Source: Psychrobacter sp. DM4
GTDB taxonomy: Bacteria > Pseudomonadota > Gammaproteobacteria > Pseudomonadales > Moraxellaceae
Direction of reading: 5' to 3'
DNA: 32,000 nucleotides
Assembly (NCBI RefSeq): GCF_051307035.1
Contig: NZ_CP195536.1
Coordinates: 1,980,001 to 2,012,000 of the forward strand
Below, piece by piece: positions 1,913-32,000 of the stretch. The first letter of the stretch is position 1. Each line of letters begins with the position of its first letter. Below the pieces are notes generated by a model. It ran no database searches and had not been told where the DNA came from. It worked only from the letters and a program-made list of their open reading frames with translations. Both the position numbers and the translations under genes were made by a program.

Positions 1913-2068
1913 GATTTATCCTTGATGCGTGAGTATGATTTATTATGGTCTTATAGTAGCATGGATAAAGCTTAATTTTTAGCCAGCACTTGACGAGGAC
2001 AAGCACACTCTAATTAGACTCAAAACTTGTTATGTGAGCATTAGAACAATCTTTGCATAATGATTTAT
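1911..2068. promoter_or_regulatory. Divergent promoter region carrying three direct copies of ATGATTTAT (candidate operator)
   Basis: Exact 9-mer 'atgatttat' at 1911-1919 (overlapping the TerA-like start codon), 1935-1943 and 2060-2068, all in the same orientation. A 'tataat' hexamer lies at 2086-2091, upstream of the ATP-grasp gene. No binding protein is identified. Confidence 0.3.
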
Positions 2069-2134
2069 ATCTCAATGCATTTGTATATAATGGCTGTCAG
2101 ATAAAATATCAAAACATGTGAGGCTGAGACTATC

Positions 2135-3286: not shown

Positions 3287-3333
3287 GCTAGCTGCCTTAT
3301 AACTTTAGCAGACTCATCTTCTACAACAATAAA

Positions 3334-4533: not shown

Positions 4534-4886
4534 AACACTGACTACTATAAAAAAGTGCACATATAGCACGGCTGACCCAAAAATGGGTGCTAGGATTTAG
4601 GGAGTATAAGTAGAGAGTAAGGCGCATTCATTTGCGGTAATATAGCTCTACTTTTGATTCAAGTTTCGTTCAGCGGCATATTCTAGTACATTGTTTTTTG
4701 ATTATCTATCAGACTTATGTTCACGGTAATTGATTGAGTCTATTAAAACTGCTTTGCCCTCCAGTTCTATGCAAAAGTCGTTAGAATGGACAAACTTATG
4801 TATTATATACCTGTATATCTATAGCGGTAACTTTGATAAGATTTAGCTCCTAAGTATATGACGAATATTTGAACAGAGGATAGGCA

Positions 4887-6110: not shown

Positions 6111-6194
6111 ACAGACCTTTAATACCAAACAAAAACTATTATAGAGTTATCAAAAATAAAAAATACCGAAAATCAGAAACATCAAGGAATATGA

Positions 6195-7436
6195 ATGTCA
6201 AAGCAGCAACACAGTACTCGCATCACCTTACCTCGCGGTACATTAGATTTAACGTATCAAACCAATAGCACCAACAATAATAAAAACTATGAACTTGAAG
6301 ACTTACTTGGCTTTGCGCAGCGCATTAACCCCAAACGTGCGTTTTTATTCGTCTCAAAAGTCTTGGGTCGACACATTCCCGTCGCACCTCATACCATGCG
6401 TCGTGCTTTTACGGATTTGGCAAACCTAGTCCCTAGCAAGTTACCCGAGCCCATTTTAGTTATCGGTATGGCAGAGACTGCTGTGGGCTTATCTGCAGGC
6501 GTCCATCAAGCGCTACAAGCGCGCTATTTGAATGCTGTACTACTCAACTCCACGCGTCACGCACAGCATAGCGATAATAATAGTGAGACCTTGCTGACCA
6601 CTTTTAGTGAAGACCATAGTCACGCCAGCCAACATCTCATCTATCAAAGCTGCGATAAAATGACTCAAGAGCAATTGCTGGCTAGCAAAACGTTGATTAT
6701 GGTTGATGATGAAGCCTCAACAGGTAATACCTGCGTCAACGTCGTGACCGCACTGCGTAACGCTGGTCTGAACCAATTAGAGCAAGTCCATCTCACAACT
6801 TTGGTGGATTGGTCGCTAAGTCACGATGCAACTGATGCTGATGACACTATATCAACGCGTTTGCCTAATATTGACTTTCAGCGTCATCACTTGCTCTCTG
6901 GGGCATGGCAATGGAGAGATGCGCCTAATCCTGAACCGATCACTATGCCCTCAGTTGATACGACTGATGCTGGCACGCAAACGTTGGGTAATACAGGGAA
7001 TTGGGGACGCTTTCCCACTCTAAATAGCACTAATGGCTTTGCCCATTATTTAGCAAATTTTCAAACAAAGTTTGCACGCTTTCATGAGCAAGCGATATTT
7101 GCTAAAAAGCAATTACCCCAGCGTATTTTGGTTTTAGGTAGTAATGAGTTTGTCTGGTTGCCGTTTTTATTAGCGGAGTGGCTTGAGCAAAATACTGGCT
7201 CACAGAATGAAGTAAAGTTCAGCGCCTTGACCCGTTCACCGATTGCGCTTGGTGGTGCAATTACAACTATGCTCAGCTTTCATGATAATTACGGATTGGG
7301 CATGACGAACTTTGCTTATAATGTCGAGCCAAAGGATTGGGATTTGATTGTGCTATGTGTAGAAACGGCCGCTGCTAGTGTTGATACCATGTGGCAAAGT
7401 TTGGATAATGTGTTGGTGATGAGTCCTATACCTTAA
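6195..7436 (+). CDS. Phosphoribosyltransferase-domain protein with C-terminal TRSP-like domain (Ter-associated PRTase)
   Basis: 413 aa. PRPP-binding signature 'LIMVDDEASTGNT', preceded by 'LVIGMAETAVGLSAGV'. The C-terminal region 'RILVLGSNEFVWLPFLLAEWLE...FSALTRSPI' is consistent with the TRSP domain reported after this PRTase type in Ter loci. RBS 'aaggaa'. Confidence 0.75.
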   Translation: MSKQQHSTRITLPRGTLDLTYQTNSTNNNKNYELEDLLGFAQRINPKRAFLFVSKVLGRHIPVAPHTMRRAFTDLANLVPSKLPEPILVIGMAETAVGLSAGVHQALQARYLNAVLLNSTRHAQHSDNNSETLLTTFSEDHSHASQHLIYQSCDKMTQEQLLASKTLIMVDDEASTGNTCVNVVTALRNAGLNQLEQVHLTTLVDWSLSHDATDADDTISTRLPNIDFQRHHLLSGAWQWRDAPNPEPITMPSVDTTDAGTQTLGNTGNWGRFPTLNSTNGFAHYLANFQTKFARFHEQAIFAKKQLPQRILVLGSNEFVWLPFLLAEWLEQNTGSQNEVKFSALTRSPIALGGAITTMLSFHDNYGLGMTNFAYNVEPKDWDLIVLCVETAAASVDTMWQSLDNVLVMSPIP

Positions 7437-7478
7437 ATCGCATTCAAACTTCTAAACTTATCATTTACGGACACTACT

Positions 7479-8297
7479 ATGACCACCTCATTCTTCGAGT
7501 CTAACCCAAACCTTATAAAACCATACGCTCTTATGGATTTGGACGACACTTTATTTCAAACCCAACGTAAGATTGAGGCTTGGGATCTGCCTACTGCTGA
7601 CCCTAAAAACTTAGTTTGTGCGACGGTAAATAAACAAGACGAGCCGCTTAGCTTTATGAGTCAACGACAAGCGACGTTTTTTAATTGGTTGCTCGCTAGC
7701 ACTGAATTGATAGTGGTTACTGCCCGTGACCGTGATGAGATTAAACGCGTTAAGCTGCCTTTTAACAGTTGGCAAGTGCTGACTCATGGCGCGATTATCT
7801 TAACCAGTAATGGCGAGCTACTAAGCACATGGCAACAGCATATGTATCAGCAGCTAAGTCCCTTGCAAAATAAACTGAATCAGTTAAGCCAACTATTTGC
7901 CAGTCATAGTAAAAATGATAACAGTCAGCTGGTATTTACGCCGCATATTGATAACTTTGATGCTGGTTCTACTAACGAAGAATTAACCATTTATCTAGCG
8001 ATAAAACATGCCAAAAAAGATCATCGAGCATTAAAAGAATTAGCCGAGAAGCTCCCTACATTGATCCGTGATTTTGCACAGGACTTTTATGTGCATGTTA
8101 ATGCTAATAATCTAGCGATACTGCCGCATGCTATTCATAAGCAACATGCGGTACAGTTTTTATTAGATCATCATTTAGACAGTCAGCGTCCGAGTTTTGG
8201 CTTTGGTGACAGTCTGGCAGATTTGCCGTTTCTGCAACTACTTGATTGGTACGGTATGCCCAATCACGGTCAGCTGCATGACAATCTTAGTTCTTAA
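7479..8297 (+). CDS. HAD-superfamily phosphatase (Ter-associated)
   Basis: 272 aa. HAD motif I 'LMDLDDTLF', motif II 'VVTARD', C-terminal acidic motif 'FGFGDSLADLPFL'. Confidence 0.75.
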   Translation: MTTSFFESNPNLIKPYALMDLDDTLFQTQRKIEAWDLPTADPKNLVCATVNKQDEPLSFMSQRQATFFNWLLASTELIVVTARDRDEIKRVKLPFNSWQVLTHGAIILTSNGELLSTWQQHMYQQLSPLQNKLNQLSQLFASHSKNDNSQLVFTPHIDNFDAGSTNEELTIYLAIKHAKKDHRALKELAEKLPTLIRDFAQDFYVHVNANNLAILPHAIHKQHAVQFLLDHHLDSQRPSFGFGDSLADLPFLQLLDWYGMPNHGQLHDNLSS

Positions 8298-8371
8298 TGG
8301 TTTTTGGCTCTTAACAACTCTCAAATATCAATAATTATAATAACAACAGCTTATACGAGAAAGAACCTCTT

Positions 8372-9562
8372 ATGACCAACCCTAATCTTCAAAAATTAAA
8401 CCATTACGGCTCAGGCAGTTATCTTGCTAGCGATGTCACTGTACTGCTCGACATCGTCGCTAAAGACGCGGTTACCGATGTGCCCGTCACTCAAAAAGAA
8501 GCGCTGATTCAAAGTGGACAGCGTCATTATTCGGACATGCTAACCCTAGAGCAAGCACCAACAGCCATGCATGAGCAACTGTATAAGCAGGCACTGGATC
8601 AAGGCACAGATAGAACCGCAACCGATATTGCCAATTTAGCTTATACGCTAAGTCGTATTTTTCAGCAGACTGTCAATGTTGAGCATCCATTAGTATTGGT
8701 CAGCTTAGTACGGGCAGGTTTGCCAATTGGCGTATTATTACAACGGGCCTTATCAGATAATGGAAATTCAGATAATGAAAATTCAGATGCTGATAGCAGC
8801 TATGCGCTGCCAAGTGTGCATTTTGGTATCAGCATTATTCGTGATCGCGGTTTAGATGCTGTTGCTTTGCAAATGATATTGGAATTTTATCCAAACAGCC
8901 CTATCGTATTCGTCGATGGCTGGACAGGCAAAGGCGCTATTTATCAGGAACTAGCTCGTAGCTTAGAGCCATTTAGCGATAGCAGTCACCCCCATTTTGA
9001 AAATATTTTTCATCAAGGAAAAGACGTTATTCCCCTGCTGACACTGGCTGATCCAGCGGGCGTCGCTTGGCTTGCGGCGAGCGAAGATGATTGGCTCATT
9101 CCATCAGGTTTATTAAACAGCACCGTGTCAGGACTCATATCACGCAGCCTCTATACTGAGCCGCAATTAGGACTACATCGCAGCGTGTTCTATGATAACT
9201 TGAGTGATAAGGATCATAGCTTAGCGCTGGTTGATCGTATTGATGCAACGAGGCGTACAATAGCAACACCTTTGCTAGGTTTGCCAACGTTTGCTCTGCC
9301 TCGGTATCAGACCTCTGATCTCATAGATAAAATAGCAGTAGACTATAACATCACCAATCGCAATCGCATTAAGCCGACCATTGCAGAGGCAACGCGGGCT
9401 ATATTACGCCGTGATCCTGAGCGCATTTTACTTGCCGCATCCGACCATCCTGATACTTTATTATTGCGTCATTTATGCGAAGATCGTGATATCACTATCA
9501 GTATATTAGGTGATAAAATACGGCCCTATCAAGCCATCACTTTGATCAAGCAACGTAGCTGA
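8372..9562 (+). CDS. Second Ter-associated PRTase-like protein with C-terminal L7Ae/PELOTA-like domain
   Basis: 396 aa. PRTase-like core: 'LVLVSLVRAGLPIGVLL', 'IVFVDGWTGKGAI'. The C-terminal ~70 aa, 'ATRAILRRDPERILLAASDHPDTLLLRHLCEDRDITISILGDKIRPYQAITLI', follows the L7Ae/Pelota RNA-binding pattern. It contains an in-frame 15-bp tandem repeat that encodes SDNGN/SDNEN/SDADS. Confidence 0.7.
   Translation: MTNPNLQKLNHYGSGSYLASDVTVLLDIVAKDAVTDVPVTQKEALIQSGQRHYSDMLTLEQAPTAMHEQLYKQALDQGTDRTATDIANLAYTLSRIFQQTVNVEHPLVLVSLVRAGLPIGVLLQRALSDNGNSDNENSDADSSYALPSVHFGISIIRDRGLDAVALQMILEFYPNSPIVFVDGWTGKGAIYQELARSLEPFSDSSHPHFENIFHQGKDVIPLLTLADPAGVAWLAASEDDWLIPSGLLNSTVSGLISRSLYTEPQLGLHRSVFYDNLSDKDHSLALVDRIDATRRTIATPLLGLPTFALPRYQTSDLIDKIAVDYNITNRNRIKPTIAEATRAILRRDPERILLAASDHPDTLLLRHLCEDRDITISILGDKIRPYQAITLIKQRS
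8753..8797 (+). repeat. In-frame 15-bp tandem repeat (about 3 units) inside the PRTase gene
   Basis: Units are 'tcagataatggaaat' (8753-8767), 'tcagataatgaaaat' (8768-8782) and a degenerate 'tcagatgctgatagc' (8783-8797). Confidence 0.85.
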
Positions 9563-9605
9563 GAGATTTGAGCTTCTACGACTGTCCTATTAATATATAT
9601 TCTGC

Positions 9606-10724
9606 ATGTTAAAACCAATATTTCACTCACTTATGATGCCTACTATGTCAGATACGCCAGATAACGAGTCAAACCTCTATAGCTATACCCAGTCTTATGC
9701 GCATCTGATCACTGAGCGTCATGCGATGGTCAAGCCGCATACTCATCACCCTTATCAGTTGGGTGCTAGCCTCTATATGCCAGCGACGCGTCAAGACATC
9801 TGGCAAGTCATCAAACGTGATAAATTACCGAAGATTAACAGCATTATCATCTGCCTAGAGGATGCGGTAAGTCATAGCGATGTAGAGCTGGCGCTGGAAC
9901 GTTTGCAGACGTTGCTGAATACGTGGCACGAGCATAGTGATACGATCAATGAGCCATCGAGAGTGGGCCTTGAATCAGACTTAGGCACCCAGCAACCGAC
10001 ACGGCCGCTAGTGTTTGTGCGTCCACGCAATCCTATGATGCTACAACAATTGGCAGATTATCCTCATATTGACCTGCTCGATGGTTTTGTCATGCCCAAA
10101 GTCGATATGTATAGCTTATCCAATTGGCGCATGGTATGTCAGAACTTGAGTGACGATCAGCTATTGATGCCAACACTTGAGACTGCTGCTTTATTCAATC
10201 CTCATCACAATCAAGAGCTGGCTATAGCTTTTAAAGAAGCTTTTAATCAGCCTGTCTTTGCGCTACGTATCGGCGGTAATGACTTGTTTGCTACGCTACG
10301 CCTGCGTCGCCCTAGAAATAGCATCATCTATGATACGCCTATTGGTACTCTTGCCTATCAGCTGCTAGGCTGCTTTGTGCCGCACGGGTTTTATCTATCT
10401 GCGCCTGTCTTTGAGTATCTAGATCAGCCTATGTTGTTTATGCAAGAGCTCAGTCGTGACGTCAGTTTGGGGCTGGTTGGCAAAACCGTCATTCACCCAA
10501 GCCAAATAGCCTTAGTTCAGCAGGCCTATTGTGTGCCTATGAGTATGCTAGATGAGGCGCAAGCGATCCTTCATAGTGAAGCAAAAGCGGTCTTTAAATT
10601 TAACAATACCATGTTAGAGCCTGCCACCCACCGCGCTTGGGCTACCGAAATCGTCAATCGCGCTGAGGTGTTCGGTACTATCAACAATAGTAGCAATGAG
10701 TTTAATTCGCGGCTACAAGCGTAA
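9606..10724 (+). CDS. HpcH/HpaI aldolase / citrate lyase beta (CitE)-like TIM-barrel C-C lyase (Ter-associated)
   Basis: 372 aa. 'LGASLYMPATRQD', 'IIICLEDAV', 'LRIGGNDLFATLRLRR' and 'GKTVIHPSQI' match the CitE/HpcH-like pattern. It is the last gene of the co-directional run 4887-10724. The start is ambiguous, with ATGs at 9606, 9633, 9636 and 9645. Confidence 0.75.
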   Translation: MLKPIFHSLMMPTMSDTPDNESNLYSYTQSYAHLITERHAMVKPHTHHPYQLGASLYMPATRQDIWQVIKRDKLPKINSIIICLEDAVSHSDVELALERLQTLLNTWHEHSDTINEPSRVGLESDLGTQQPTRPLVFVRPRNPMMLQQLADYPHIDLLDGFVMPKVDMYSLSNWRMVCQNLSDDQLLMPTLETAALFNPHHNQELAIAFKEAFNQPVFALRIGGNDLFATLRLRRPRNSIIYDTPIGTLAYQLLGCFVPHGFYLSAPVFEYLDQPMLFMQELSRDVSLGLVGKTVIHPSQIALVQQAYCVPMSMLDEAQAILHSEAKAVFKFNNTMLEPATHRAWATEIVNRAEVFGTINNSSNEFNSRLQA

Positions 10725-22090: not shown

Positions 22091-24175
22091 TTAAACAGTT
22101 AAGGTTGGCGTTGGCTTATCCGCTGTTTTTATATTAAATATAGCCACGATTAATACTATTAATCCGCCTATTAACCCTGTTGTCAGCTCAGGATAAATCA
22201 GTAGCAACGCGCCAATGGTCAGTATGCCACGAGTTAGTGGGTTCATAGCACCTTTGAAATAACCCTCCAGCGCCGCACTAAGTGCAATGACGCCCGTCAC
22301 TGACGTCAATACGACAGTCATTATGTCAAAAATAGGCGGTAGCGGGAAATCTTTTGCCGTGACCGCTAGACCTGTTGGATCTATCATCAGCATAGTAGGG
22401 CTATAAATAAACATAAACGGCACGATGAATCCGGCGAGTGCTAACTTTAACGATAAGAATCCTGTCTTCATCGGATCGCCGCCCGATATACCAGCGCCAG
22501 CAAAGGCTGCCAGACATACAGGCGGGGTAATATTAGCAAAAATACCAAAATAAAAGACGAACATATGCGCTGATAAAATTGGAATATCAAAACCTGCTAG
22601 AGCTGGTGCTGCCATCGTTGCCGTTATAATGTAAGCAGGAATAGACGGTAGACCCATGCCCAATACCATAGAGGCAAGCATCGTCAAAATAAGGGTTAGA
22701 AATAGTGACCCTGCTCCTAGCGTAACGATTGATGAGGTCATCACCGTACCAAAGCTAGTTAAGCTCACAACTCCAATGATAATACCTACCACCGCACAAG
22801 CTGCCATCACTGCCAATGACTGGCGAGCACCATCTTCTAAAGCCGCCATAATGTCAGAAACCCCCATTCTAGTCTCTTTGCGTAGCATACTGATCACAAC
22901 TGTGAAACCAATAGTGTAGGCTGCGGCATAGCCTACCGGTACGCTTCTAATTAATAAAAATATCAAAAACACAATCGGTAATAGCATATGACCGCGCGCT
23001 TTTAGCACCTCTTTGACCTGCGGTAAGCTCTCTTTAGCCATACCTTTTAGGTCGCGACGTCCAGCCCGAAAATGCACTTGGGCAATGACACCTAGATAAT
23101 AAAGTACTGCTGGTAGTAATGCTGCCAACGCAATCGTGCTATACGGCAACCCTGTCGTCTCTGCCATGATAAACGCACTCGCACCCATAATCGGTGGCAA
23201 TATCTGTCCGCCCACAGAAGCACTCGCCTCCACTGCACCTGCGAAATCTTTGTGATAACCGACCTTTTTCATTAATGGAATAGTAAAGGCACCAGTACTG
23301 ACCACGTTAGATAAAGCAGAGCCATTGATACTGCCCATAAAGCCACTTGAGATGACCGCAACCTTGGCAGGTCCGCCTTTTTTATCACCGGCTAGCGCAA
23401 GTGCCAAGTCATTAAATAACTGCCCCATTCCCGAACGTGCTAAAAATGCGCCAAATAAAATAAACAAGAAAATAAAGGTGACCGACGCGCCAATCGCAAC
23501 AGAATACAGACCTTCGGTTTTTAGAAATAATTGGCCAAAAATATCGCCCATATCATAGGGACGCGTGAGTAGTCGATCAGGCATAAAATCCAAATGGCTG
23601 ACAAATGGATAAGCCAAGAATATCCCTGCCAATATAGGCAAAATCCAACCCGTAATACGCCGACTGCCTTCTAGCACACAGACCACCGTAATCAATGAAA
23701 ATATGACATCGACCTGATTTGCCATACCGCCACGCGAGGTCACAATATCTTGATATTCATAGATTAGATAGCCCATACCAGATAAAGATAGAGCAAACCA
23801 AATCCAGTCATACCACGCTACTCGCTTACGACTGCTCTTTTTACTGGCAGGGAAAATCAGAAATATTAAGGCAAAACCAACACCCACGTGTACAGAACGC
23901 TGCAATAATGCTGGCATCGGGTTAAAGGTGATGTACAAGTGAAAAAGGGAATAGAGTATACAAATACCCGCAATAAAATACTTTACTGGGCCTTGAGTAA
24001 TATGACGGGTGATTGACTCTCGATCATATTTTTCTAATATCGCTTGATTATGAGCTTGTGCTTCAAGTTCATCGTCTGTATTGGTGGTAGCATGAGTATT
24101 GGAGTGTGTAGGCAGATCAGTATGGTTTGCTGACATCGTTGTCACATTATCGCGATCCATCACTTGAGCGTTCAT
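22091..24175 (-). CDS. TRAP transporter fused permease (TAXI-type, DctQ/DctM-like fusion)
   Basis: 694 aa polytopic membrane protein with a hydrophilic N-terminus. It is the last gene of an operon with a TAXI binding protein and DUF1850, and its start overlaps the DUF1850 stop. Confidence 0.85.
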   Translation of the reverse strand: MNAQVMDRDNVTTMSANHTDLPTHSNTHATTNTDDELEAQAHNQAILEKYDRESITRHITQGPVKYFIAGICILYSLFHLYITFNPMPALLQRSVHVGVGFALIFLIFPASKKSSRKRVAWYDWIWFALSLSGMGYLIYEYQDIVTSRGGMANQVDVIFSLITVVCVLEGSRRITGWILPILAGIFLAYPFVSHLDFMPDRLLTRPYDMGDIFGQLFLKTEGLYSVAIGASVTFIFLFILFGAFLARSGMGQLFNDLALALAGDKKGGPAKVAVISSGFMGSINGSALSNVVSTGAFTIPLMKKVGYHKDFAGAVEASASVGGQILPPIMGASAFIMAETTGLPYSTIALAALLPAVLYYLGVIAQVHFRAGRRDLKGMAKESLPQVKEVLKARGHMLLPIVFLIFLLIRSVPVGYAAAYTIGFTVVISMLRKETRMGVSDIMAALEDGARQSLAVMAACAVVGIIIGVVSLTSFGTVMTSSIVTLGAGSLFLTLILTMLASMVLGMGLPSIPAYIITATMAAPALAGFDIPILSAHMFVFYFGIFANITPPVCLAAFAGAGISGGDPMKTGFLSLKLALAGFIVPFMFIYSPTMLMIDPTGLAVTAKDFPLPPIFDIMTVVLTSVTGVIALSAALEGYFKGAMNPLTRGILTIGALLLIYPELTTGLIGGLIVLIVAIFNIKTADKPTPTLTV

Positions 24176-24674
24176 GACAAAAGTCCTTTTTCAATCTATC
24201 AATTAAATGATACGCCTTAGGCGTAATAGTTACTTCAGAATAATCTGGCGCCCATTTATGAATCAAAAGTCGATAGTCAGCATAATCAAGCTCACCTTTG
24301 GTCAGTCTGGACACTACCCAATTAAGGCTAGGCAGTTTTTCATTGATCTGATAACCCAGATAACCAGGTTTTTGTATGGGCGCTAGTGCTTCAGTAGAAG
24401 GCGTACCCGCGCCAAACGCTTGAAAATAGGTGGTTGTAAGTAGTAGTCCATCGTTTTTACGTTGGTATTGTTCTTCCCACCACTGTTTTTCTACAGAATG
24501 AATCCAGCGCAACTGAAAATTGGGTTCAGTAAAATAACAAACTTTTCCATCGACTTGTACTTCGATAACAGACTGACGTGATAAGCTTGCCCATAGCGCA
24601 AAACAAACTAGCGCAGCCATTAGTGCCGCGCTAGTGAATAACCATAATCGTTTATTTGGCAGCTTGCTCATCAT
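24147..24674 (-). CDS. DUF1850-domain protein (TAXI-TRAP-associated)
   Basis: One N-terminal TM ('LWLFTSAALMAALVCFALWA') followed by a soluble domain. Its position between the TAXI binding protein and the fused permease is typical for DUF1850. The start at the ATG-ATG pair 24674/24671 is preferred over the listed 24716. Confidence 0.65.
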   Translation of the reverse strand: MMSKLPNKRLWLFTSAALMAALVCFALWASLSRQSVIEVQVDGKVCYFTEPNFQLRWIHSVEKQWWEEQYQRKNDGLLLTTTYFQAFGAGTPSTEALAPIQKPGYLGYQINEKLPSLNWVVSRLTKGELDYADYRLLIHKWAPDYSEVTITPKAYHLIDRLKKDFCHERSSDGSR

Positions 24675-25671
24675 AGTACTTTTTGGCGCCAGGATGGATT
24701 GGGGCGACCATACCATCGAGAGCGGTTTCTAAACTGATATCATTGGCCGCTTGGTGAGCTGTCTTTAGACCGTCTAAATTATCAAACAGCGCTTTGGTTA
24801 ATTTATAACCATCATCTTCAGACAAATCAGAGCTAACCAACAATGCATTCATGATTGCCGCCGTTGGAATAGCGGATTCATTACCATAAGTACCAACAGG
24901 AATCTCAAAGGTCTTAAAGTAAGGCTTGCTTGCGATAATTTCTTTTAGCTTGTCTTGGTTGATAGTGATAATCTGTAAATCTAAGCCCTGCTCTAGCTCC
25001 ATCAAAGACGAGTTTGGTAAACCACTACTAAAGAATGCTGCTTCGATTTTACCCGCTTTCATACCATCAGCCGCTTCAGCAAAGCCTAGATAGTCGACAG
25101 TAACGTCATCATAGGTGATACCAAACCCTTCTAACAAAGTTCGAGCATTTACTTCTGTGCCAGAACCTTGATCACCGACAGCAATACGCTTGCCTCTTAA
25201 ATCTTCAATGTTTTTGATGCCAGATTTTTTTGACGTCACAATTTGTACCACGTTAGGGTACAGAACAGCAATCTGTTGAATATTGGTGATTGGCTGATCA
25301 AAGTTGTTTTTGCCTTCAACTGCGTCCGTGACCACGTCGCTGAGCGCCAATACCATGTCCACTTTACCTTGTGTCAATAGATTGACGTTTTCAACTGATG
25401 CGCCTGTAGTTTGTGTCTTTGAGTTGACGCCAAAAGTTTTGACATAGACCTCAGACAATGACGTGCCAATGATGTTATAGGGGCCGGACGCACCGCCAGT
25501 CGCAATAGTCAAAAACTTGGTATCAAGTTTGTCGACTGAAGCAGTGTCAGCTGTAGTAGAAGTATCGCTACTCTCCGAGCTCGGAGATGAACACGCCGTC
25601 AGGCCTAACGTGATGCTTAGCATTACTGATAAAAGTAAAGGGGATTTTATAGAATTGAGCATTGAGTTCAT
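24652..25671 (-). CDS. TAXI-family TRAP transporter solute-binding lipoprotein
   Basis: 339 aa. Lipobox 'LGLTAC', an S/T-rich tether, then 'LTIATGGASGPYNIIGTSL', 'GKVDMVLALSD', 'RIAVGDQGSGTE' and 'HPGAKKYYDE', as in TAXI receptors. Confidence 0.88.
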   Translation of the reverse strand: MNSMLNSIKSPLLLSVMLSITLGLTACSSPSSESSDTSTTADTASVDKLDTKFLTIATGGASGPYNIIGTSLSEVYVKTFGVNSKTQTTGASVENVNLLTQGKVDMVLALSDVVTDAVEGKNNFDQPITNIQQIAVLYPNVVQIVTSKKSGIKNIEDLRGKRIAVGDQGSGTEVNARTLLEGFGITYDDVTVDYLGFAEAADGMKAGKIEAAFFSSGLPNSSLMELEQGLDLQIITINQDKLKEIIASKPYFKTFEIPVGTYGNESAIPTAAIMNALLVSSDLSEDDGYKLTKALFDNLDGLKTAHQAANDISLETALDGMVAPIHPGAKKYYDEQAAK

Positions 25672-26035
25672 CCTTGAAGTAATCGATTTAATACCTTTAA
25701 CGACATTAATATATAGACATTAATCCGTTATAGCTAAGTAATGATATAGCAATTTTTATCACAAATAAACTAAAGTCTGTTTTCTATTTTCCTTGCATTA
25801 CCCTCATAACCTAATTGATGACACACCCTAGTTCCGTCACAATTTCCTTGGAAACAACTAATACTAAGGTATCAAATAACTGGATTGTATTTTTATTACT
25901 CCTTCAATTCTGCTATATTTCGACTAAAATTTAACTCGTAGTGCTGTATCTAAAACATATGCTACTTAAACCAACAAACACAATATCACCTGAACCAGCA
26001 CCTTTGCTTTTTGTGATCAAATTTGGATAAACCTT

Positions 26036-26932
26036 ATGACAACATCTACAATAGAAGCATCAGAATCTTTGTCTGCCGACATTGCTATCATCGGTGGTAG
26101 CGGTCTATATCAGATGGCCGACTTGACCAACAAGCGCAGCATCAGCATCGCAACGCCTTATGGTAAGCCCTCTGACGGTATTGTATTGGGTGAATTGAAT
26201 GGTGTGACCGTAGCTTTTCTAGCTCGTCATGGTCAAGAGCATAGACTCACCCCTTCTACTGTGCCTTATCGCGCCAATATTTATGCGCTTAAAACATTAG
26301 GGGTGCGCTATATTGTTTCCGTATCAGCAGTAGGTTCATTACAAAAAGAGCTCAAGCCATTGGATATGGTCGTACCCGATCAGATGATCGATATGACCAA
26401 ACAGCGCTCAAGTAGCTTTTTTGGTAAAGGTGCCGTCGCTCATGTATCGATGGCTGATCCAATATGTCCTGCGGTTGCTGATATCTTAACGCGTGCTTAT
26501 ACTCAAGCCAATATCAATGAGGGACAATGTCATCCTAAAGCGACTTACGTCTGTATCGAAGGCCCGCAGTTCTCTACTCGCGCTGAATCGCAGTGGTATC
26601 GTCAAATGAATGCCGATATCATCGGCATGACCAATATGCCAGAAGCGAAGCTCGCCCGCGAAGCGAGCATTGCTTATGCAACATTAGCATTGGTGACAGA
26701 CTTTGATAGTTGGCATCCAACGGAAGAAGACGTTAGCGCTGATTATGCGATTCAAAACCTCATGAAAAACGCCGATAACGCGCAACAAGTGATTAAACAA
26801 GCCGTTGCTCTGATCGCTGCCGAGCAGCCTAAATCGATCGCGCATAATGCTCTAGCTCAATCATTAGTCACGCCTATCGAAGCAATGAGCGTTGAAGTTA
26901 AGGCTAAACTTGGTGCTTTACTGCCTGAGTAA
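26036..26932 (+). CDS. mtnP: S-methyl-5'-thioadenosine phosphorylase
   Basis: 298 aa. 'IAIIGGSGLY', 'FLARHG..H...PS.VPYRANIYALK.LGV', 'VSAVGSL', 'ICIEGPQFSTRAES' and 'IGMTNMPEAKLAREA' are MTAP/PNP-family signatures. Confidence 0.92.
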   Translation: MTTSTIEASESLSADIAIIGGSGLYQMADLTNKRSISIATPYGKPSDGIVLGELNGVTVAFLARHGQEHRLTPSTVPYRANIYALKTLGVRYIVSVSAVGSLQKELKPLDMVVPDQMIDMTKQRSSSFFGKGAVAHVSMADPICPAVADILTRAYTQANINEGQCHPKATYVCIEGPQFSTRAESQWYRQMNADIIGMTNMPEAKLAREASIAYATLALVTDFDSWHPTEEDVSADYAIQNLMKNADNAQQVIKQAVALIAAEQPKSIAHNALAQSLVTPIEAMSVEVKAKLGALLPE

Positions 26933-26968
26933 TCATCTATGACCCCTTAGCCAACCCTAATTTTGCAT

Positions 26969-27001
26969 AAAAAAAGCCATCACAATATGTGATGGCTTTT
27001 T
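26969..27001. terminator. Bidirectional rho-independent terminator (mtnP / arsM-like convergent pair)
   Basis: A-run at 26969-26975. Stem 'agccatcaca' (26975-26984) pairs with 'tgtgatggct' (26988-26997). T-run at 26998-27001. Confidence 0.85.
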
Positions 27002-27025
27002 GCTGTTTTGCCTAATTAATGATCG

Positions 27026-28111
27026 CTAACAACAACCGCCTGAACTGCTAGAGGTATTTGTAGTAGCGACCATCGGCGCAACCTCTACTAGTTGATTGCC
27101 TTGCGACTGACCAAACGGTATCGAATCACCGCAACCAGCAAAGATGCCATAATGCTGGCTGTTATCGCCAATAAATTCAAAGTGCGGCGCAAAACGAGAC
27201 TCTTTGAGCATTTGATAAGTATTCGCGCAGACCGAAAACACCCGACCCGTCTCGATACTATGATGCTTATCAAGATCAAAGCGATGAGGTAGCTGATCAA
27301 TACTGCCTTTGTAAATCACGGCTTGTCCATAATCTTCACAAGCATCTTCTATTGACTCGCTCTTAAAGAGACGATAAGTGGCAGAAAAGAACTTGATCTC
27401 GCCAATTTTTGCTGCCAGTAAAGGATCAGTAATCTCAAGCGGACGATCTTCGACAAGTCTTGGATCTAAAAATTTGGCATCACGTGATAAGCGCTCAAAA
27501 TCTTTCCAATAAAGTGCGCCGCTTAAACACTCCCCATACAACACAGGATCTTCAACTAAGTGCTGAGGGATGCGGCGATCTGAATATACATCAGAAAAAT
27601 AAAACTCACCACCAGGCTTTAGCAGACGCTGTACGCTAGCCATTACCGCAGCTTTGTCAGTCGATAAATTGATAACGCAGTTTGAGACGATTATATCGAA
27701 GCTATTATCTTCTAGATCAAGCTCATCTAACGTTTCAAGATAGCCTTTTATAAAGGTGACGTTTTCGTAGCCAAATTTATCGCTATGATAGTCCTGATGC
27801 TCCTTTGCAATAGCTAATTGCTCATCAGTCATATCTATACCAACGACATGACCACTGCTTCCTACGAGCTGCGCTAAGGCGTAAACATCACGACCAGAGC
27901 CACTGCCTAAATCTAGTATACGGCAGCCCTCTAGTAGTGCTGGGCAGACAAGCCCGCAACCATAATAACGACTCAACACATCGTCATGAATATTAGCCAA
28001 TAGCGGTTTGAGCCAATTAGGCATGTTGCTGACATCACAGCACGCTGAGGTTTTTAGATCAGCTGTACTCTGTAGCTGTTTACCGTAATAATCTTGTACT
28101 ACATCTTGCAT
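27026..28111 (-). CDS. arsM: ArsM-like As(III) S-adenosylmethionine methyltransferase
   Basis: 361 aa. SAM motif 'ILDLGSGSGRDVY'. All four Cys contexts typical of ArsM are present: 'SACCD', 'YYGCGLVCP', 'VSNCVINL' and 'YGECLSGAL'. The C-terminal tail ends 'SSSSGGCC'. Confidence 0.8.
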   Translation of the reverse strand: MQDVVQDYYGKQLQSTADLKTSACCDVSNMPNWLKPLLANIHDDVLSRYYGCGLVCPALLEGCRILDLGSGSGRDVYALAQLVGSSGHVVGIDMTDEQLAIAKEHQDYHSDKFGYENVTFIKGYLETLDELDLEDNSFDIIVSNCVINLSTDKAAVMASVQRLLKPGGEFYFSDVYSDRRIPQHLVEDPVLYGECLSGALYWKDFERLSRDAKFLDPRLVEDRPLEITDPLLAAKIGEIKFFSATYRLFKSESIEDACEDYGQAVIYKGSIDQLPHRFDLDKHHSIETGRVFSVCANTYQMLKESRFAPHFEFIGDNSQHYGIFAGCGDSIPFGQSQGNQLVEVAPMVATTNTSSSSGGCC

Positions 28112-28164
28112 GATTTTTTTCCTTCAAAGGTAATAGTTGTAGAGATAGAGACATCTCTAATTTA

Positions 28165-28800
28165 TCAATCAGTTATCGTATAATCGGCTAGCCAGTCAGT
28201 AGGCAAATACTGTAGATCACTGGGCTCATCGATATCATGCAAGGTCTCAAGTATACGCAATGACCAGTCTAATTCCACTAATCGCTGTTGGGTGACTGCG
28301 GCAACGTTACTGATGCTCCAAGTCATATCTGAGAACAGGCGCTCGTGAGTTTGCTTGAAGCCTAAAAGCACATAGCCACCGTCTGAAGCTGGAATCATCA
28401 CACTATCACAGCTATCTAGTTGCTGCGCGGCACTTTGAATAACTGTCGTTGACAGACTAGGGCAATCTGTCCCTATTAGTAACACCTTTTCAAATTTTGT
28501 CAAAGCTTGCGCACTAGCTGTGAGCATACGAGTACCTAAGTCGCCATTGGCTTGTACTGACCACAGCAGTGACCTAGGTAAATCTAGCGTCTGCCAGCAC
28601 GGGTCATTTGGCGCCGGACTCACACATAACTCGACGGCAAGCCCAGTTGCTACTGCTTGCTCTATACTATGTAGCAATAGTTTACGCGCCATACGCGCAG
28701 AACCTGCGATACCAAGGGCGGGTTGCAGGCGAGTTTTGGCCATGCCTTCGGCAGGGAATTTGGCAAAGACAATAAGGCAGGTTGGTTGTTTTTGATTCAT
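28165..28800 (-). CDS. DUF2064 / CofC-MobA-like transferase (rSAM/selenodomain-associated 'transferase 1' type)
   Basis: 'CLIVFAKFPAEGMAKTRL', 'LLIGTDCPSL', 'IPASDGGYVLLG' match the DUF2064 nucleotidyl-transferase-like family. It is tightly packed after the GT2 gene. Start at ATG 28800, or 28809. Confidence 0.7.
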   Translation of the reverse strand: MNQKQPTCLIVFAKFPAEGMAKTRLQPALGIAGSARMARKLLLHSIEQAVATGLAVELCVSPAPNDPCWQTLDLPRSLLWSVQANGDLGTRMLTASAQALTKFEKVLLIGTDCPSLSTTVIQSAAQQLDSCDSVMIPASDGGYVLLGFKQTHERLFSDMTWSISNVAAVTQQRLVELDWSLRILETLHDIDEPSDLQYLPTDWLADYTITD

Positions 28801-28817
28801 GATAAGCATATTTTCTT

Positions 28818-29540
28818 TTATTGGTAATAGCGCTTTTTGATATTATCAGCAGATACGCCGCGCCAATAATCAAAACGCAGCTGCCACATTAGAGCAATCG
28901 TGCGCCAAGTGCCATGCTGTCGCCAGCGCCGCGCCGAGGTGGTAACTTTACTCTTCAAACAAGCAGGTTTGCCGATGGATTTTAAGCGTTTACTTACTTC
29001 AATATCTTCCATTAATGCTTGATTGGGATAACCGTTTATTTCTTCAAAGACTTTACGTTTAATAAAAATAGCTTGGTCACCAGTGGCAATACTACTCAAT
29101 CGTGAGCGCAAATTTATCATTTGGCCAACTAGCTTGAGCGTCCAATCAGGGCTATCTAGGCGCACATCAAAACGACCCCACTTAGCGCCTTGATACATTA
29201 CCCTAGCAATATCTAATATCGACGCAGTTGGTAATATCGTATCGGCATGCAAGAACAGCAGTACATCGCCAGTAGCGAGCGCGGCGCCCTCGTTCATTTG
29301 CGTCGCGCGTCCTGCTTTTGACTCAACCACTTGCCAATCTGTAGCCGATTGACTATCAATAGTCAGACTTTTTATCATTTGCTTAGCGAGTGCCAAAGAA
29401 TTATCGTTTGAGCTACCATCGACCATGATAACTTCTTTCGGCGCTGGGTTGAGTCCATTAATATGAGCAAACAAATGAGGCAGATTATCTGCCTCATTGA
29501 GTATGGGAATAATAATAGAAACCGTAACAATGGCGGTCAT
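28818..29540 (-). CDS. Family-2 glycosyltransferase (rSAM/selenodomain-associated 'transferase 2' type)
   Basis: 'VSIIIPILNEADNL', 'VIMVDGSSNDNS', 'LLFLHADTILP', 'GDQAIFIKRKVFEEINGYP...MEDIE' give the GT-A fold DxD/ED pattern. The ATG at 29540 is preferred, and the listed GTG at 29552 is possible. Confidence 0.8.
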   Translation of the reverse strand: MTAIVTVSIIIPILNEADNLPHLFAHINGLNPAPKEVIMVDGSSNDNSLALAKQMIKSLTIDSQSATDWQVVESKAGRATQMNEGAALATGDVLLFLHADTILPTASILDIARVMYQGAKWGRFDVRLDSPDWTLKLVGQMINLRSRLSSIATGDQAIFIKRKVFEEINGYPNQALMEDIEVSKRLKSIGKPACLKSKVTTSARRWRQHGTWRTIALMWQLRFDYWRGVSADNIKKRYYQ

Positions 29541-29560
29541 ATTTGCTAGCACTCACCTTT

Positions 29561-30382
29561 TTACTTTTTATTCAAATTCCAATTATAGTTGGTGTAGCTA
29601 ATCTTGGTTTTGCCTGCTTTTAGATCCGCAGTTTGTGATTTATTGAGACCTAAAGATGAATTGTAGCGAGCTAAGAACCCTTCTAAATCACCGGTACCGC
29701 GCCAGTTGCTCTCAAAATCTTCTTTGTACCATTTAAAAATAGGCGAGACCTCAAGCGTACTCCCTTTAAGACGGTTACGGCTACTATCCGCTAGGAACTT
29801 ACTGGTTACTTGCTCTAACTGCTTATCCAATTTGCTAGCAGTAAAAGCGTCGTTCAAGAGTGCAGGACAGCCGATGCTCGCGCAATTAACCGCAAAATGA
29901 ATTCGCGGTTCGTTATAACGCTTAGAGCCACGAATGAGATTGTGTTCAATATCGTCAAGCGAACGCGTTTTTCCTAACAAAGGAATGAAATCTTGCTTCC
30001 ACGGCGAGCCAAATATGCCACCGATATCCTTGATTGACTTGATACTAGGGTATTTGGTCAAAACCAACTCTACGGTGCCTGCGTTATAGACGTTAATCAA
30101 AAATGCCAACTGCTCGTCTTTACTCCAACGATTGAATTCAGATTGACTGACTTTGCTCGTCGCTGCCATGTAGCTATCAAGTTTGCTTTTATCAGCTTTC
30201 ATACCGTTGTAATTGACGACAGAGGCTTTACCACCATTGGTCATCGTCACGTTTTTATTTAGCAAACTATCCCAGCTACTATGATTAAAATCGGCATAAG
30301 CGGCGCTTGATAGCATGAGCGTGGCAGCGATAAAGGTTTTAGTCATTGAGATATTTGACAGTGGTACTTTATTATTAAACAT
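29561..30382 (-). CDS. DUF547-domain protein with N-terminal signal peptide
   Basis: The ATG at 30382 has RBS 'ggag' 8 nt upstream. The signal-like N-terminus reads 'MTKTFIAATLMLSSAAYA'. DUF547 core: 'AFLINVYNAGTVELVL', 'HFAVNCASIGCPALL'. The listed 30490 start would overlap the upstream arsS-like gene and adds an Arg-rich, non-homologous extension. Confidence 0.75.
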   Translation of the reverse strand: MFNNKVPLSNISMTKTFIAATLMLSSAAYADFNHSSWDSLLNKNVTMTNGGKASVVNYNGMKADKSKLDSYMAATSKVSQSEFNRWSKDEQLAFLINVYNAGTVELVLTKYPSIKSIKDIGGIFGSPWKQDFIPLLGKTRSLDDIEHNLIRGSKRYNEPRIHFAVNCASIGCPALLNDAFTASKLDKQLEQVTSKFLADSSRNRLKGSTLEVSPIFKWYKEDFESNWRGTGDLEGFLARYNSSLGLNKSQTADLKAGKTKISYTNYNWNLNKK

Positions 30383-30447
30383 AAGATAAGCTCCGTTGAT
30401 GCTAATGATAATATTGGTTTTATGAATAAGAGTGCCTAGAACCTGCT

Positions 30448-31425
30448 CTAAACCACTTTTACCTTTTCTTCTTCTAAAGCACCGCCACAACTACTGCCTT
30501 GTCCTGCCGTACAACCATAACAATGGTCGCCAATAGCAATATCGTCGCCAGTAGGGTTTTGGGTAAGTAGATTGCGTAGATGTCTTCGCGATCTGTTGGG
30601 TACAGGCATCTCTAACTGTTGATTAAAATCGCAATCAAATAACTCACCAAGCCAGTTGACACTAATCGTCGAGCGGCACATCACATCGGTTAAATTGTGA
30701 GCGTCATAGTTGTCTTTTAGCAGATTCATATAGGGATGAAATTCGTTTTTGGCGAGTAGCACTGCGCCAAAGCGCTGAATAGGCATATTGGTCAAGGCAA
30801 ACAATTGATTAAACTCGATATCGAAGTGCTCTTTTAACTCGCGCTTATAGTCCGCCTCTAGTAATTGCTGGTTGGGCGGCAAAGAGGCGCCCTGTGGGTT
30901 ATAAACAAGATTCAATGTCAACCCTGTATCTGCCCTTCCAAACCCAAATGCGTTGAGCTTATGCAGTCCCAAGATACTATCGTCAAATGCGCCTTTGCCG
31001 CGCTGTTTGTCGACGTTCTCAAGCGAGTAACAAGGCAGTGAGGCGACTACTTCGACCTCATTATCTGCCAAAAACTGTGCCATATCCTCATAACCCTCTT
31101 CCATCAAGATCGTTAAATTGCAACGATCAATGACTTTAACCCCTAGTGCGCGAGCTTCTTTTACTAAGTATTTAAAATCGTCATGCATCTCAGGAGCACC
31201 GCCTGTGAGATCAAGCGTGTCCATATCTTGCGCTTGTAATACGTCTACTATCAGCTCAACTAACTCACGCGACATCATCTCAGTCCGATAAGGACTGGCA
31301 GCCACATGACAATGGACACAAGACATGTTGCACAGATAGCCCATATTCACCTGTAGTGTTGTCAGCTCACGTCGCTTGATCGCTGGGAAGTCTGTATGTT
31401 CAAGCAGCTCAATAGTAGATTTCAT
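30448..31425 (-). CDS. arsS: Radical SAM / Cys-rich-domain protein, ArsS-like
   Basis: 325 aa. Radical SAM cluster motif 'CNMSCVHCHV', 'LDLTGGAPEMH', and the C-terminal Cys-rich tail 'HCYGCTAGQGSSCGG' that characterises this family. Confidence 0.8.
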   Translation of the reverse strand: MKSTIELLEHTDFPAIKRRELTTLQVNMGYLCNMSCVHCHVAASPYRTEMMSRELVELIVDVLQAQDMDTLDLTGGAPEMHDDFKYLVKEARALGVKVIDRCNLTILMEEGYEDMAQFLADNEVEVVASLPCYSLENVDKQRGKGAFDDSILGLHKLNAFGFGRADTGLTLNLVYNPQGASLPPNQQLLEADYKRELKEHFDIEFNQLFALTNMPIQRFGAVLLAKNEFHPYMNLLKDNYDAHNLTDVMCRSTISVNWLGELFDCDFNQQLEMPVPNRSRRHLRNLLTQNPTGDDIAIGDHCYGCTAGQGSSCGGALEEEKVKVV

Positions 31426-31620
31426 AAGGTATGGCCTTTATGTGATGGCAGTTTTGATTGATCAAACATTCCAATTGTAAAATATAGCGTTTTTATTCTT
31501 GATTAATTTGCTCGCCTGCAATAGTAGAGTATCTTAAAACTATAGAGATAAGTAGCATTTTTGAGTGATAACTCATTTATTATTGCACTATTTGACGATA
31601 CTATTGTGACGCTAGATAAT

Positions 31621-31642
31621 AGACCATGTAACTAAATGGTCT
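31621..31642 (-). terminator. Weak hairpin between the oxidoreductase and arsS-like genes
   Basis: 'agaccat' (31621-31627) pairs with 'atggtct' (31636-31642). Only a weak U-tract ('attat') follows on the minus strand. Confidence 0.3.
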
Positions 31643-31698
31643 AAACAGACTAAATTATTGTTTTTTAAATAGATTTTACTTTTTTCTCATACAAAAGT

Positions 31699-31998
31699 TT
31701 ACTTATATGACGCTACAAAACGCTTATCGATGTAGCGTTTGACGTACCAAATCCAGCGGCCTTGTAGGCTGTACTTACCCCAGCTACCGATAGCGTATAT
31801 ATCACCGCAGGACAATAAATATAGAGTACGCGCGCGTGGTTTGTACTCTTTTAACGGCTCATTAGCCAAGTACGCCATCAGATTGTTTGCTTCCACCGCG
31901 CCACCATGCACCGCGTGTACACCTGAATGTGCCACATCTTGGTCAGTGCGCGTTGCGACATCACCTACCGCGAATACATTGGCATGTGAAGTACTTTG
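31699..31998 (-). CDS. FAD-dependent pyridine nucleotide-disulfide oxidoreductase, C-terminal part (5' end beyond window)
   Basis: The frame stays open from 31935 to the window end. My own translation of 31936-31998 gives 'QSTSHANVFAVGDVATRTDQD', which joins the listed 'VAHSGVHAVHGG...'. 'NVFAVGDVA' is the second FAD-binding motif of NDH-2/SQR-like flavoproteins. Confidence 0.75.
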   Translation of the reverse strand, partial: QSTSHANVFAVGDVATRTDQDVAHSGVHAVHGGAVEANNLMAYLANEPLKEYKPRARTLYLLSCGDIYAIGSWGKYSLQGRWIWYVKRYIDKRFVASYK

Positions 31999-32000
31999 CT

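Follow-up and report, generated by a model that had tools for sequence, protein, structure and literature searches.

What does a gene cluster built around the radical S-adenosylmethionine (SAM) enzyme ArsS make in an aerobic heterotrophic bacterium, and which enzymes might act after ArsS? The question is raised by a locus at 27026–32000 of a 32,000-nt stretch of the chromosome of Psychrobacter sp. DM4 (contig NZ_CP195536.1; the whole stretch is called the window here, and all coordinates are positions within it). Read in the direction of transcription, the locus comprises the 3′ end of a flavoprotein gene, arsS, a gene for an exported DUF547 protein, a gene for a TIGR04283 family 2 glycosyltransferase (GT2), a TIGR04282/DUF2064 gene and an arsM-like methyltransferase gene, to which a gene for S-methyl-5′-thioadenosine phosphorylase (MTAP) runs convergent. 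The NCBI pipeline uses the names 'arsenosugar biosynthesis radical SAM (seleno)protein ArsS' and 'TIGR04283/TIGR04282 family arsenosugar biosynthesis glycosyltransferase', and since this annotation already calls the three families arsenosugar biosynthesis proteins, the cluster is a recognised object; genome papers repeat the names without experiments. The locus is an intact chromosomal Psychrobacter copy of this widespread, already annotated ArsS/TIGR04283/TIGR04282 module. Among the arsenic species of marine food webs, arsenosugars hold a major place. A route to them was reportedly proposed by Edmonds and Francesconi in the 1980s, and to our knowledge the part after adenosylation has been open ever since. 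With moderate confidence, we propose that the window cluster makes a 5-deoxy-5-dimethylarsinoyl-riboside, an arsenosugar-type compound, by way of ArsM, ArsS, MTAP, TIGR04282 and TIGR04283.

The region at 27026–32000 holds five complete open reading frames (ORFs) and one truncated ORF, every one on the minus strand, and all six co-directional genes listed in a preliminary description of the window were found at their positions. Its picture of a tight six-gene cluster holds for five of them, which are separated by gaps of about 65, 8, 8 and 53 bp in an operon-like arrangement, but the flavoprotein gene lies 273 bp away from arsS and is cut by the window edge. Together, arsM, arsS, both transferase genes and the MTAP gene fit in 5.4 kb. 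For comparison, 80 loci of ArsS homologues with 10-kb flanks were collected from beta- and gammaproteobacteria, and 17 reference proteins were mapped onto them; counts out of 81 include the window. TIGR04283 was followed immediately by TIGR04282 on the ArsS strand in 63/81 loci, which bears out the earlier claim that the radical SAM family and the two transferase families form a conserved set.

The arsS gene (30448–31425, minus strand) encodes a protein that matches PF04055 and scores 459.2 bits against TIGR04167 (equivalog cut-off 300; E 5.7e-138; profile positions 2–303 of 303). Its radical SAM motif CX3CX2C (C32/C36/C39) is contained in CNMSCVHC at residues 32–39, and its C-terminus is a Cys-rich DUF3641 domain (PF12345, 186 bits) ending in ...HCYGCTAGQGSSCGG. 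In the ArsS alignment C302, C305 and C313 are invariant, and identity to Psychrobacter ArsS proteins is 92–93%. At the ...SS(C/U)GG position the protein has the Cys form, with no in-frame TGA; a selenoprotein form was considered and rejected, as the ORF is uninterrupted and a Cys stands where selenocysteine (Sec) would be. In agreement with what had been noted earlier, ArsM and ArsS are reported to carry out the first steps of arsenosugar synthesis in Synechocystis, with genetic pairing of arsM and arsS (Xue et al, 2019; Cheng et al, 2021). Synechocystis ArsS is also reported to add, in vitro, the 5′-deoxyadenosyl radical to trivalent dimethylarsenic (DMAs(III)) in a redox-neutral reaction that gives DDMAA (5′-deoxy-5′-dimethylarsinoyl-adenosine). 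Equivalog-level homology suggests that the window ArsS has the same activity.

The methyltransferase gene (27026–28111, minus strand) encodes 361 aa that align with the Chlamydomonas ArsM structure 5evj over residues 4–334 (350 bits, E 1.6e-103) and with the CmArsM structure 4fr0 (304 bits). Cys24, Cys52 and the cysteines of SNCVINL and YGECL align with C44/C72/C174/C224 of CmArsM, and the SAM-binding motif ILDLGSGSGRD (DLGxGxG) is present (PF13847, 130 bits). Because of the homology to solved ArsMs and the four matching cysteines, the protein is, judged by its sequence, clearly a genuine member of the ArsM family of SAM-dependent As(III) methyltransferases, in no curated subfamily. The NCBI pipeline calls its Acinetobacter orthologue a 'methyltransferase domain-containing protein'. 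A Cys-Cys terminus behind a variable, low-complexity linker was found in 27/28 cluster-linked ArsM sequences, the window's own counted; this tail (27026–27040 in the window) recalls metal hand-off tails.

These two enzymes also bear on whether selenium might be the natural substrate, with ArsM and ArsS acting on selenium species and seleno-ribosides as the outcome. The flavoprotein family is named for its fusion with SelD (TIGR03169/TIGR04369), at some loci a PhnD-like binding protein is encoded that matches, below threshold, a putative selenate ABC (ATP-binding cassette) model, and DedA proteins have been linked to selenite uptake. On the other side, the As(III) site of solved ArsMs, with its four cysteines, is retained in full by the methyltransferase, and relatives have ArsR and phosphate (arsenate-type) transporters alongside the genes. 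The term 'selenodomain' refers to Sec-containing members and not to a selenium substrate, and the window ArsS has Cys in that place. The ArsS biochemistry was done with DMAs(III). Since the operon contains an intact ArsM and relatives show an arsenic context, arsenic is favoured for the window, and we consider a selenium substrate very improbable.

Both transferases belong to the families that the NCBI names imply: on an NCBIfam/TIGRFAM profile check they exceed their curated cut-offs, as ArsS does, which settles the family membership put forward in the preliminary description. The TIGR04283 protein (28818–29552, minus strand; 244 aa) scores 264.1 bits (cut-off 182), also matches PF00535 and is a generic GT2 of GT-A fold, soluble or membrane-peripheral. 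Its conserved acidic residues D45, D104 and E182-D183 are read as the DxD and ED signatures of GT2 enzymes. Searched against the PDB, the orthologue profile matches the GT2 structures ArnC, DPMS, GtrB and GpgS, and does not separate the soluble-acceptor enzyme (GpgS) from those using polyprenyl phosphate (ArnC, DPMS, GtrB). The TIGR04282/DUF2064 protein (28165–28809, minus strand; 214 aa) scores 190.1 bits (cut-off 134), with TIGR03552 CofC as the second match (E 6e-9). In the PDB, the single sequence matches 3cgx (E 2e-16); the orthologue profile likewise places this structural-genomics homologue first (4e-36), and the next matches are all CofC/FbiD guanylyltransferases (2i5e, 7p97, 6bwg). 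As these are its nearest characterised relatives, the protein, with its predicted CofC/FbiD/MobA-like nucleotidyltransferase fold, seems, despite the family name, to be no glycosyltransferase but a nucleotidyltransferase whose substrate is a phosphate ester. CofC and FbiD, which guanylylate phospho-acids in F420 synthesis, have the nucleotidyltransferase fold in common with it, as well as the motif (A/P)-K-x(n)-K-T/S-R-L near the N-terminus; they differ in that the similarity is remote and no F420 genes surround TIGR04282.

The MTAP gene (26036–26932, plus strand), which was absent from the preliminary gene list, encodes a protein that scores 317 bits against TIGR01694 (equivalog cut-off 274.85). 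It matches PDB 4glf/4glj (deposited as 'RsfP') over 297/297 residues with 537 bits, compared with 240 bits for archaeal MTAPs and 213 bits for human MTAP. In 33/80 loci an MTAP gene adjoins a cluster gene, usually within about 200 bp, and it does so in four arrangements: convergent at the 3′ end of the cluster (Psychrobacter, Acinetobacter); directly upstream of arsS and in the same direction (Microbulbifer, Polaromonas, Rhodoferax and others); divergent, on the upstream side of the genes for the flavoprotein and the sigma factor (Gallionella and others); and downstream, behind an ABC-transporter block. On a Burkholderia glumae plasmid, MTAP, TIGR04283, TIGR04282 and an FAD (flavin adenine dinucleotide)-oxidoreductase follow each other in one operon. 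MTAP is also carried with the whole cluster on an Acinetobacter plasmid, and in Psychrobacter sp. TAE2020, where the cluster sits in another chromosomal neighbourhood (flanked by CopD and DUF4031), it is still attached. It occurs only in transferase-bearing loci (33 against 0, Fisher p = 2e-4; p = 0.0014 when only non-Psychrobacter loci are counted) and shows no association with ArsM (Fisher p = 0.47). Because arrangements and replicons vary so much, the linkage appears to be real and functional, and we propose MTAP as a member of the module.

The same gene is the crux of a second explanation, according to which the cluster detoxifies or processes arsenic no further than DDMAA, MTAP serves methionine salvage or at most adenine recycling and the clearance of 5′-deoxyadenosine left by abortive radical SAM turnover, and the transferases, DUF547 and flavoprotein are unrelated in function. 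The window MTAP does pass a generic equivalog model, is near-identical to a solved MTAP-family protein, is convergent and outside the operon, and in Psychrobacter flanks housekeeping genes (lipA, acnB, TRAP transporter). Against this, MTAP is co-directional and tens of bp from arsS or TIGR04283 in Microbulbifer, Polaromonas, Rhodoferax and Burkholderia plasmids, accompanies the cluster both on the Acinetobacter plasmid and in its relocation in Psychrobacter sp. TAE2020, and was never found beside transferase-less ArsS loci. In addition, productive turnover of ArsS uses up the 5′-deoxyadenosyl radical and releases no 5′-deoxyadenosine. Taking both sides together, we think it unlikely that the cluster ends at DDMAA.

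The arsenosugar-type product that we favour would be reached in five steps. ArsM would convert As(III) to DMAs(III), as its family membership and four conserved cysteines suggest, and ArsS would convert DMAs(III) to DDMAA, as its homology to the Synechocystis enzyme indicates. In the third step, which is new here and derives from gene linkage, MTAP would split DDMAA by phosphorolysis into adenine and 5-deoxy-5-dimethylarsinoyl-alpha-D-ribose-1-phosphate. TIGR04282 would then turn this arsenoribose-1-phosphate into a nucleoside diphosphate (NDP)-sugar, from which TIGR04283 would transfer the arsenoribosyl group to an acceptor, possibly a glycerol-type compound or a lipid phosphate, to yield a beta-riboside. 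The products of MTAP are alpha-ribose-1-phosphates, GT2 enzymes are inverting glycosyltransferases and natural arsenosugars are beta-ribofuranosides; the stereochemistry fits the proposed route, since an alpha-ribose-1-phosphate followed by GT2 inversion would give a beta-riboside. The remaining proteins can be given speculative roles. The TIGR03169-like flavoprotein might keep arsenic or thiols reduced, for example by converting DMAs(V) to DMAs(III); if flavoproteins do reduce arsenic, dimethylarsenate from the environment could be the starting point for clusters that lack arsM. In the periplasm, the exported DUF547 protein, which has an invariant Cys-x4-Cys, might bind the product or act on it. 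A HAD-IB (haloacid dehalogenase-type) phosphatase gene in the locus of Psychrobacter sp. TAE2020, and the genes for an NAD-dependent epimerase/dehydratase and a short-chain dehydrogenase/reductase (SDR) that stand with DUF547, TIGR04283 and arsS on a Hymenobacter plasmid, fit sugar-phosphate or NDP-sugar chemistry.

The steps downstream of ArsS had been described earlier as lacking a biochemical assignment. This agrees with the literature searched, to 2026, which names no enzyme for adenine removal or later arsenosugar steps; an algal review proposes an unnamed 'adenosyl nucleosidase'. It is possible, though we hold this tentatively, that MTAP, the CofC-like TIGR04282 and the GT2 TIGR04283 constitute the long-missing post-ArsS part of arsenosugar synthesis, and that Psychrobacter and plasmid-bearing Burkholderia and Acinetobacter are unrecognised producers. 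If so, arsenosugar producers would extend beyond phototrophs to common aerobic heterotrophs, and arsenosugars or arsenosugar lipids might be made from scavenged dimethylarsenate that linked flavoproteins reduce. The compact intact locus and the crystal structure (4glf) of a close MTAP relative make the MTAP–nucleotidyltransferase–GT2 hypothesis directly testable. The value of the locus would lie in being such a test-bed in an aerobic heterotroph, with candidate enzymes for later arsenosugar steps.

The survey shows how variable the module is. Within 10 kb of arsS, TIGR04283 was present in 65 of the 80 loci, TIGR04282 in 63, a ~716-aa fusion of a DedA/VTT (TVP38) membrane domain with a MerA/lipoamide-dehydrogenase-like oxidoreductase in about 48, MTAP in 33, DUF547 in 30, the TIGR03169-like flavoprotein in 27, ArsM in 26, DUF3047 in 18, an extracytoplasmic function (ECF) sigma factor in 14, and a PHO4/Pit-type transporter directly after arsM in 6. 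At least one of the two oxidoreductase types occurs in 55 loci. Among the 12 Psychrobacter loci fetched, 4 have ArsM, as has the window, and the DedA-oxidoreductase fusion is carried by Psychrobacter L010 and by TAE2020 (L089).

Several observations weigh against the arsenosugar route. ArsM is missing from two thirds of the ArsS loci and from 8/12 Psychrobacter loci, and with most ArsS loci thus lacking it, arsenic methylation is not obligatory in the module. The commonest accessory, the DedA/VTT-MerA-like fusion, is missing from the window cluster. The window methyltransferase scores below all NCBIfam ArsM cut-offs (PRK11873, 171 against 263 bits; methyl_ArsM, 159 against 500; AsSugarArsM, 96 against 400), so that the 'ArsM-like' label given to it earlier stands on structure-linked homology and the four cysteines but misses the curated models. 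The similarity of TIGR04282 to CofC/FbiD is weak (E 5e-5 to 1e-3), and MTAP may be plain housekeeping methionine salvage or remove 5′-deoxyadenosine. On a Pseudanabaena plasmid, the gene order is ArsR, TVP38, MerA-like, arsM, TVP38, arsS; because no TIGR04282, TIGR04283 or MTAP gene lies within 9 kb of this cyanobacterial locus, the transferases are not demonstrably needed in proven arsenosugar makers. The locus counts and Fisher tests treat loci as independent despite their shared ancestry. Finally, literature searches returned no organoarsenical or arsenosugar from Psychrobacter or any cluster-bearing heterotroph.

Some of these points would also suit a third explanation, in which MTAP, TIGR04282 and TIGR04283 make a glycoconjugate from a non-arsenical, SAM-derived 5′-substituted ribose, and arsenic enters only in the arsM-bearing minority. 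Possible substrates include 5-methylthioribose-1-phosphate from methylthioadenosine (MTA), as in the methylthioxylose capping of mycobacteria, or a 5-deoxyribose derivative, and the proteobacterial ArsS would have a broader or different natural substrate. The presence of ArsM in just 26/80 loci and its lack of association with MTAP (p = 0.47) speak for this. So do the neighbouring genes, which resemble an envelope or redox stress regulon more than an ars operon: an ECF sigma factor precedes many clusters, and plasmids add genes for zf-HC2 (presumably an anti-sigma factor), CcdA, thioredoxin-family and peroxiredoxin-like proteins. A GT2 similar to polyprenyl-phosphate glycosyltransferases, the DedA/VTT domain and the exported DUF547 protein suggest an envelope-directed product, and DUF3047 is linked as well. 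On the other hand, the window operon holds an intact ArsM 53 bp after TIGR04282, phosphate transporters follow arsM in several relatives, and in a cyanobacterium the DedA and MerA-like pair stands beside arsM/arsS near an ArsR gene. The sole biochemistry known for TIGR04167 is arsenic adenosylation. We regard the non-arsenical product as improbable, though slightly less so than a pathway ending at DDMAA, and retain the arsenosugar-type riboside as the most likely product of the window cluster.

The module was also seen in altered or mobile forms. In Psychrobacter celer (L086, 11422–12382), arsS is split into two ORFs (155 and 161 aa) and there is no DUF547 gene, with TIGR04283, TIGR04282 and MTAP kept; the module appears to be decaying there. 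In Psychrobacter nivimaris (L004, 14953–15722), an IS5-family transposase gene, itself split over two frames, lies between arsM and MTAP. On the Acinetobacter portensis plasmid pJNE5-X3_NDM-1 (L081) the set is complete, with an ArsM-like gene, mtnP and a gene for a phosphate transporter among its members, and 49 Burkholderia plasmid records, nearly all from B. glumae, contain arsS. One B. glumae plasmid (L082) holds arsS, the transferases, MTAP, DUF547, an ECF sigma factor with zf-HC2, CcdA and a thioredoxin-family gene. Beside the module, L081 and L082 both have genes for CcdA, a thioredoxin-family protein, a YiiX-like cysteine hydrolase and an ECF sigma factor; a gene for a peroxiredoxin-like protein is found in L081 as well, and a second radical SAM gene in L082. 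A group of betaproteobacterial loci (L023, L029, L034, L043, L044, L060, L064 and L065) carries a PhnD/PhnE-like ABC transporter, an unannotated ~320-aa protein ('c12') and a divergent MTAP-like paralogue (41–46% identity); their PhnD-like binding protein gives a sub-threshold match to a putative selenate-binding model. The module is thus mobile in other hosts and positions (plasmids; Psychrobacter sp. TAE2020). For the window cluster itself, recent horizontal acquisition was rejected: its G+C content is 42–46%, as in the flanks, and most Psychrobacter genomes show synteny at this locus.

The two remaining proteins of the cluster were examined in the same way. The DUF547 gene (29561–30382, minus strand; longest ORF to 30490) encodes 273 aa when read from the ATG at 30382, which is the preferred start because a GGAG sits 8 nt upstream. 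The product matches PF04784 with 91.8 bits (cut-off 27) and has an invariant N-C-A-x-x-G-C-P motif (C155/C160, Cys-x4-Cys). A predicted signal peptide ends in ...LMLSSAAYA and is followed by DFNHS. A signal-peptide-like N-terminus and then a conserved FDH..WD.LL were seen in most of the 31 listed orthologous ORFs, clearly in the Psychrobacter ones, which supports export of DUF547 as first described. The nearest relatives of the window DUF547 and MTAP proteins are in Psychrobacter. The AlphaFold2 (AF2) model of DUF547 is confident (pLDDT 84.7, pTM 0.84); Foldseek comparison of this model with the PDB returned nothing meaningful (best E 3.2, TM <0.25), and the sequence search against the PDB was empty. 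Of the flavoprotein, a TIGR03169-like FAD/NAD(P) pyridine nucleotide-disulfide oxidoreductase, the window contains the last 99 codons (31699–32000, minus strand). This fragment scores 85.4 bits at the C-terminus of TIGR03169 (profile positions 268–365 of 365), and a full-length Psychrobacter orthologue (L004:8461–9750) scores 279.8 bits with TIGR03169 as the best match (cut-off 310). An FAD-dependent oxidoreductase had been counted in the cluster; its 3′ end is indeed there, but it is not tightly linked.

Upstream of arsS lies an A+T-rich intergenic region of 273 bp (31426–31698, minus strand). Promoter-like hexamers at 31645–31616 (minus strand) overlap a perfect 8-bp inverted repeat, TAGACCAT-N8-ATGGTCTA. 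Alignment of 13 Psychrobacter sequences showed the region to be poorly conserved: the repeat is only partly similar in one locus (L001), and other Psychrobacter loci share a different upstream block, GGTATGATTGATTAGATAAA, in its stead. An operator was therefore not claimed, the inverted repeat being unshared beyond the partial similarity in L001. An Rfam E-value scan of 25500–32000 gave no riboswitch or leader match within these 273 bp; its only matches, weak 'leader' ones at 26965–27079, correspond to a terminator-like hairpin (26971–27001) with a 14-bp stem and T-runs on both sides, located between the convergent MTAP and arsM genes. Next to MTAP, a TRAP (tripartite ATP-independent periplasmic) transporter operon (22091–25671) comprises genes for a fused permease (TIGR02123), a small ORF that overlaps and a binding protein of the periplasm. 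Their Psychrobacter equivalents have DctM, DUF1850 and NMT1/Phosphonate-bd domains, and the operon is syntenic in most Psychrobacter loci and absent in strains DM8 and TAE2020.

In the rest of the window, none of arsR, arsB, arsC or acr3 was found by an NCBIfam scan of 1–24000 that covered 20 ORFs, each 120 aa or longer, two short edge ORFs lying outside the scan; this is in accordance with the preliminary statement that no arsenic resistance genes are visible in the window. The scanned part contains housekeeping genes. A complete 'Ter-linked' biosynthetic set at 647–10724, unrelated to the arsenosugar cluster, is also tied to metalloid stress. It consists of genes for a TerD-domain protein (647–1912, minus strand), ATPgrasp_Ter (2135–3286), a major facilitator superfamily (MFS) transporter inside the set (3334–4569, minus strand), TerD with a trypsin-like peptidase (4887–6110), PRTase_2 with TRSP (6195–7436), a HAD hydrolase (7479–8297), a StiP cysteine protease with PELOTA_1 (8372–9562) and a TIM-barrel C-C bond lyase (9606–10724).

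The window cluster can be set beside two known systems. With the arsM-arsS pair of Synechocystis sp. PCC 6803 it has in common an ArsM-family methyltransferase and a TIGR04167 enzyme in one transcription unit, the CX3CX2C motif and Cys-rich DUF3641 domain of ArsS, and the expected conversion of As(III) to DMAs(III) and on to DDMAA. Unlike that pair, the window has DUF547, TIGR04283 and TIGR04282 between arsS and arsM, followed by MTAP. Its ArsS is about 45% identical to a cyanobacterial ArsS (Pseudanabaena), its methyltransferase fails the cyanobacterial 'AsSugarArsM' model, and the Pseudanabaena locus has TVP38 and MerA-like genes in place of the transferases. The window host lives as an aerobic heterotroph and is not among the organisms with a reported arsenosugar. 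With the computationally defined 'rSAM/selenodomain-associated' neighbourhood (TIGR04167, TIGR04282 and TIGR04283), which the NCBI pipeline annotates on chromosomes and plasmids of proteobacteria, the window shares all three families above their cut-offs, the order arsS ... TIGR04283, TIGR04282, and the accessories DUF547, ArsM-like methyltransferase, MTAP and TIGR03169-like flavoprotein; the window copy is without the DedA/VTT and MerA-like fusion, DUF3047, the ECF sigma factor and the Pit-type transporter.

The proposed later steps have a parallel in mycobacterial methylthioxylose (MTX) capping, in which the pentose is an MTA-derived 5-thio-pentose and an MTAP (Rv0535) is linked to the pathway. 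Here the GT2 MtxS (Rv0539) makes the lipid-linked MTX donor. The shared logic runs from a SAM-derived 5′-substituted adenosine to an activated pentose and on to transfer by a GT2; the substituent is methylthio in MTX and would be dimethylarsinoyl in the product proposed for the window.

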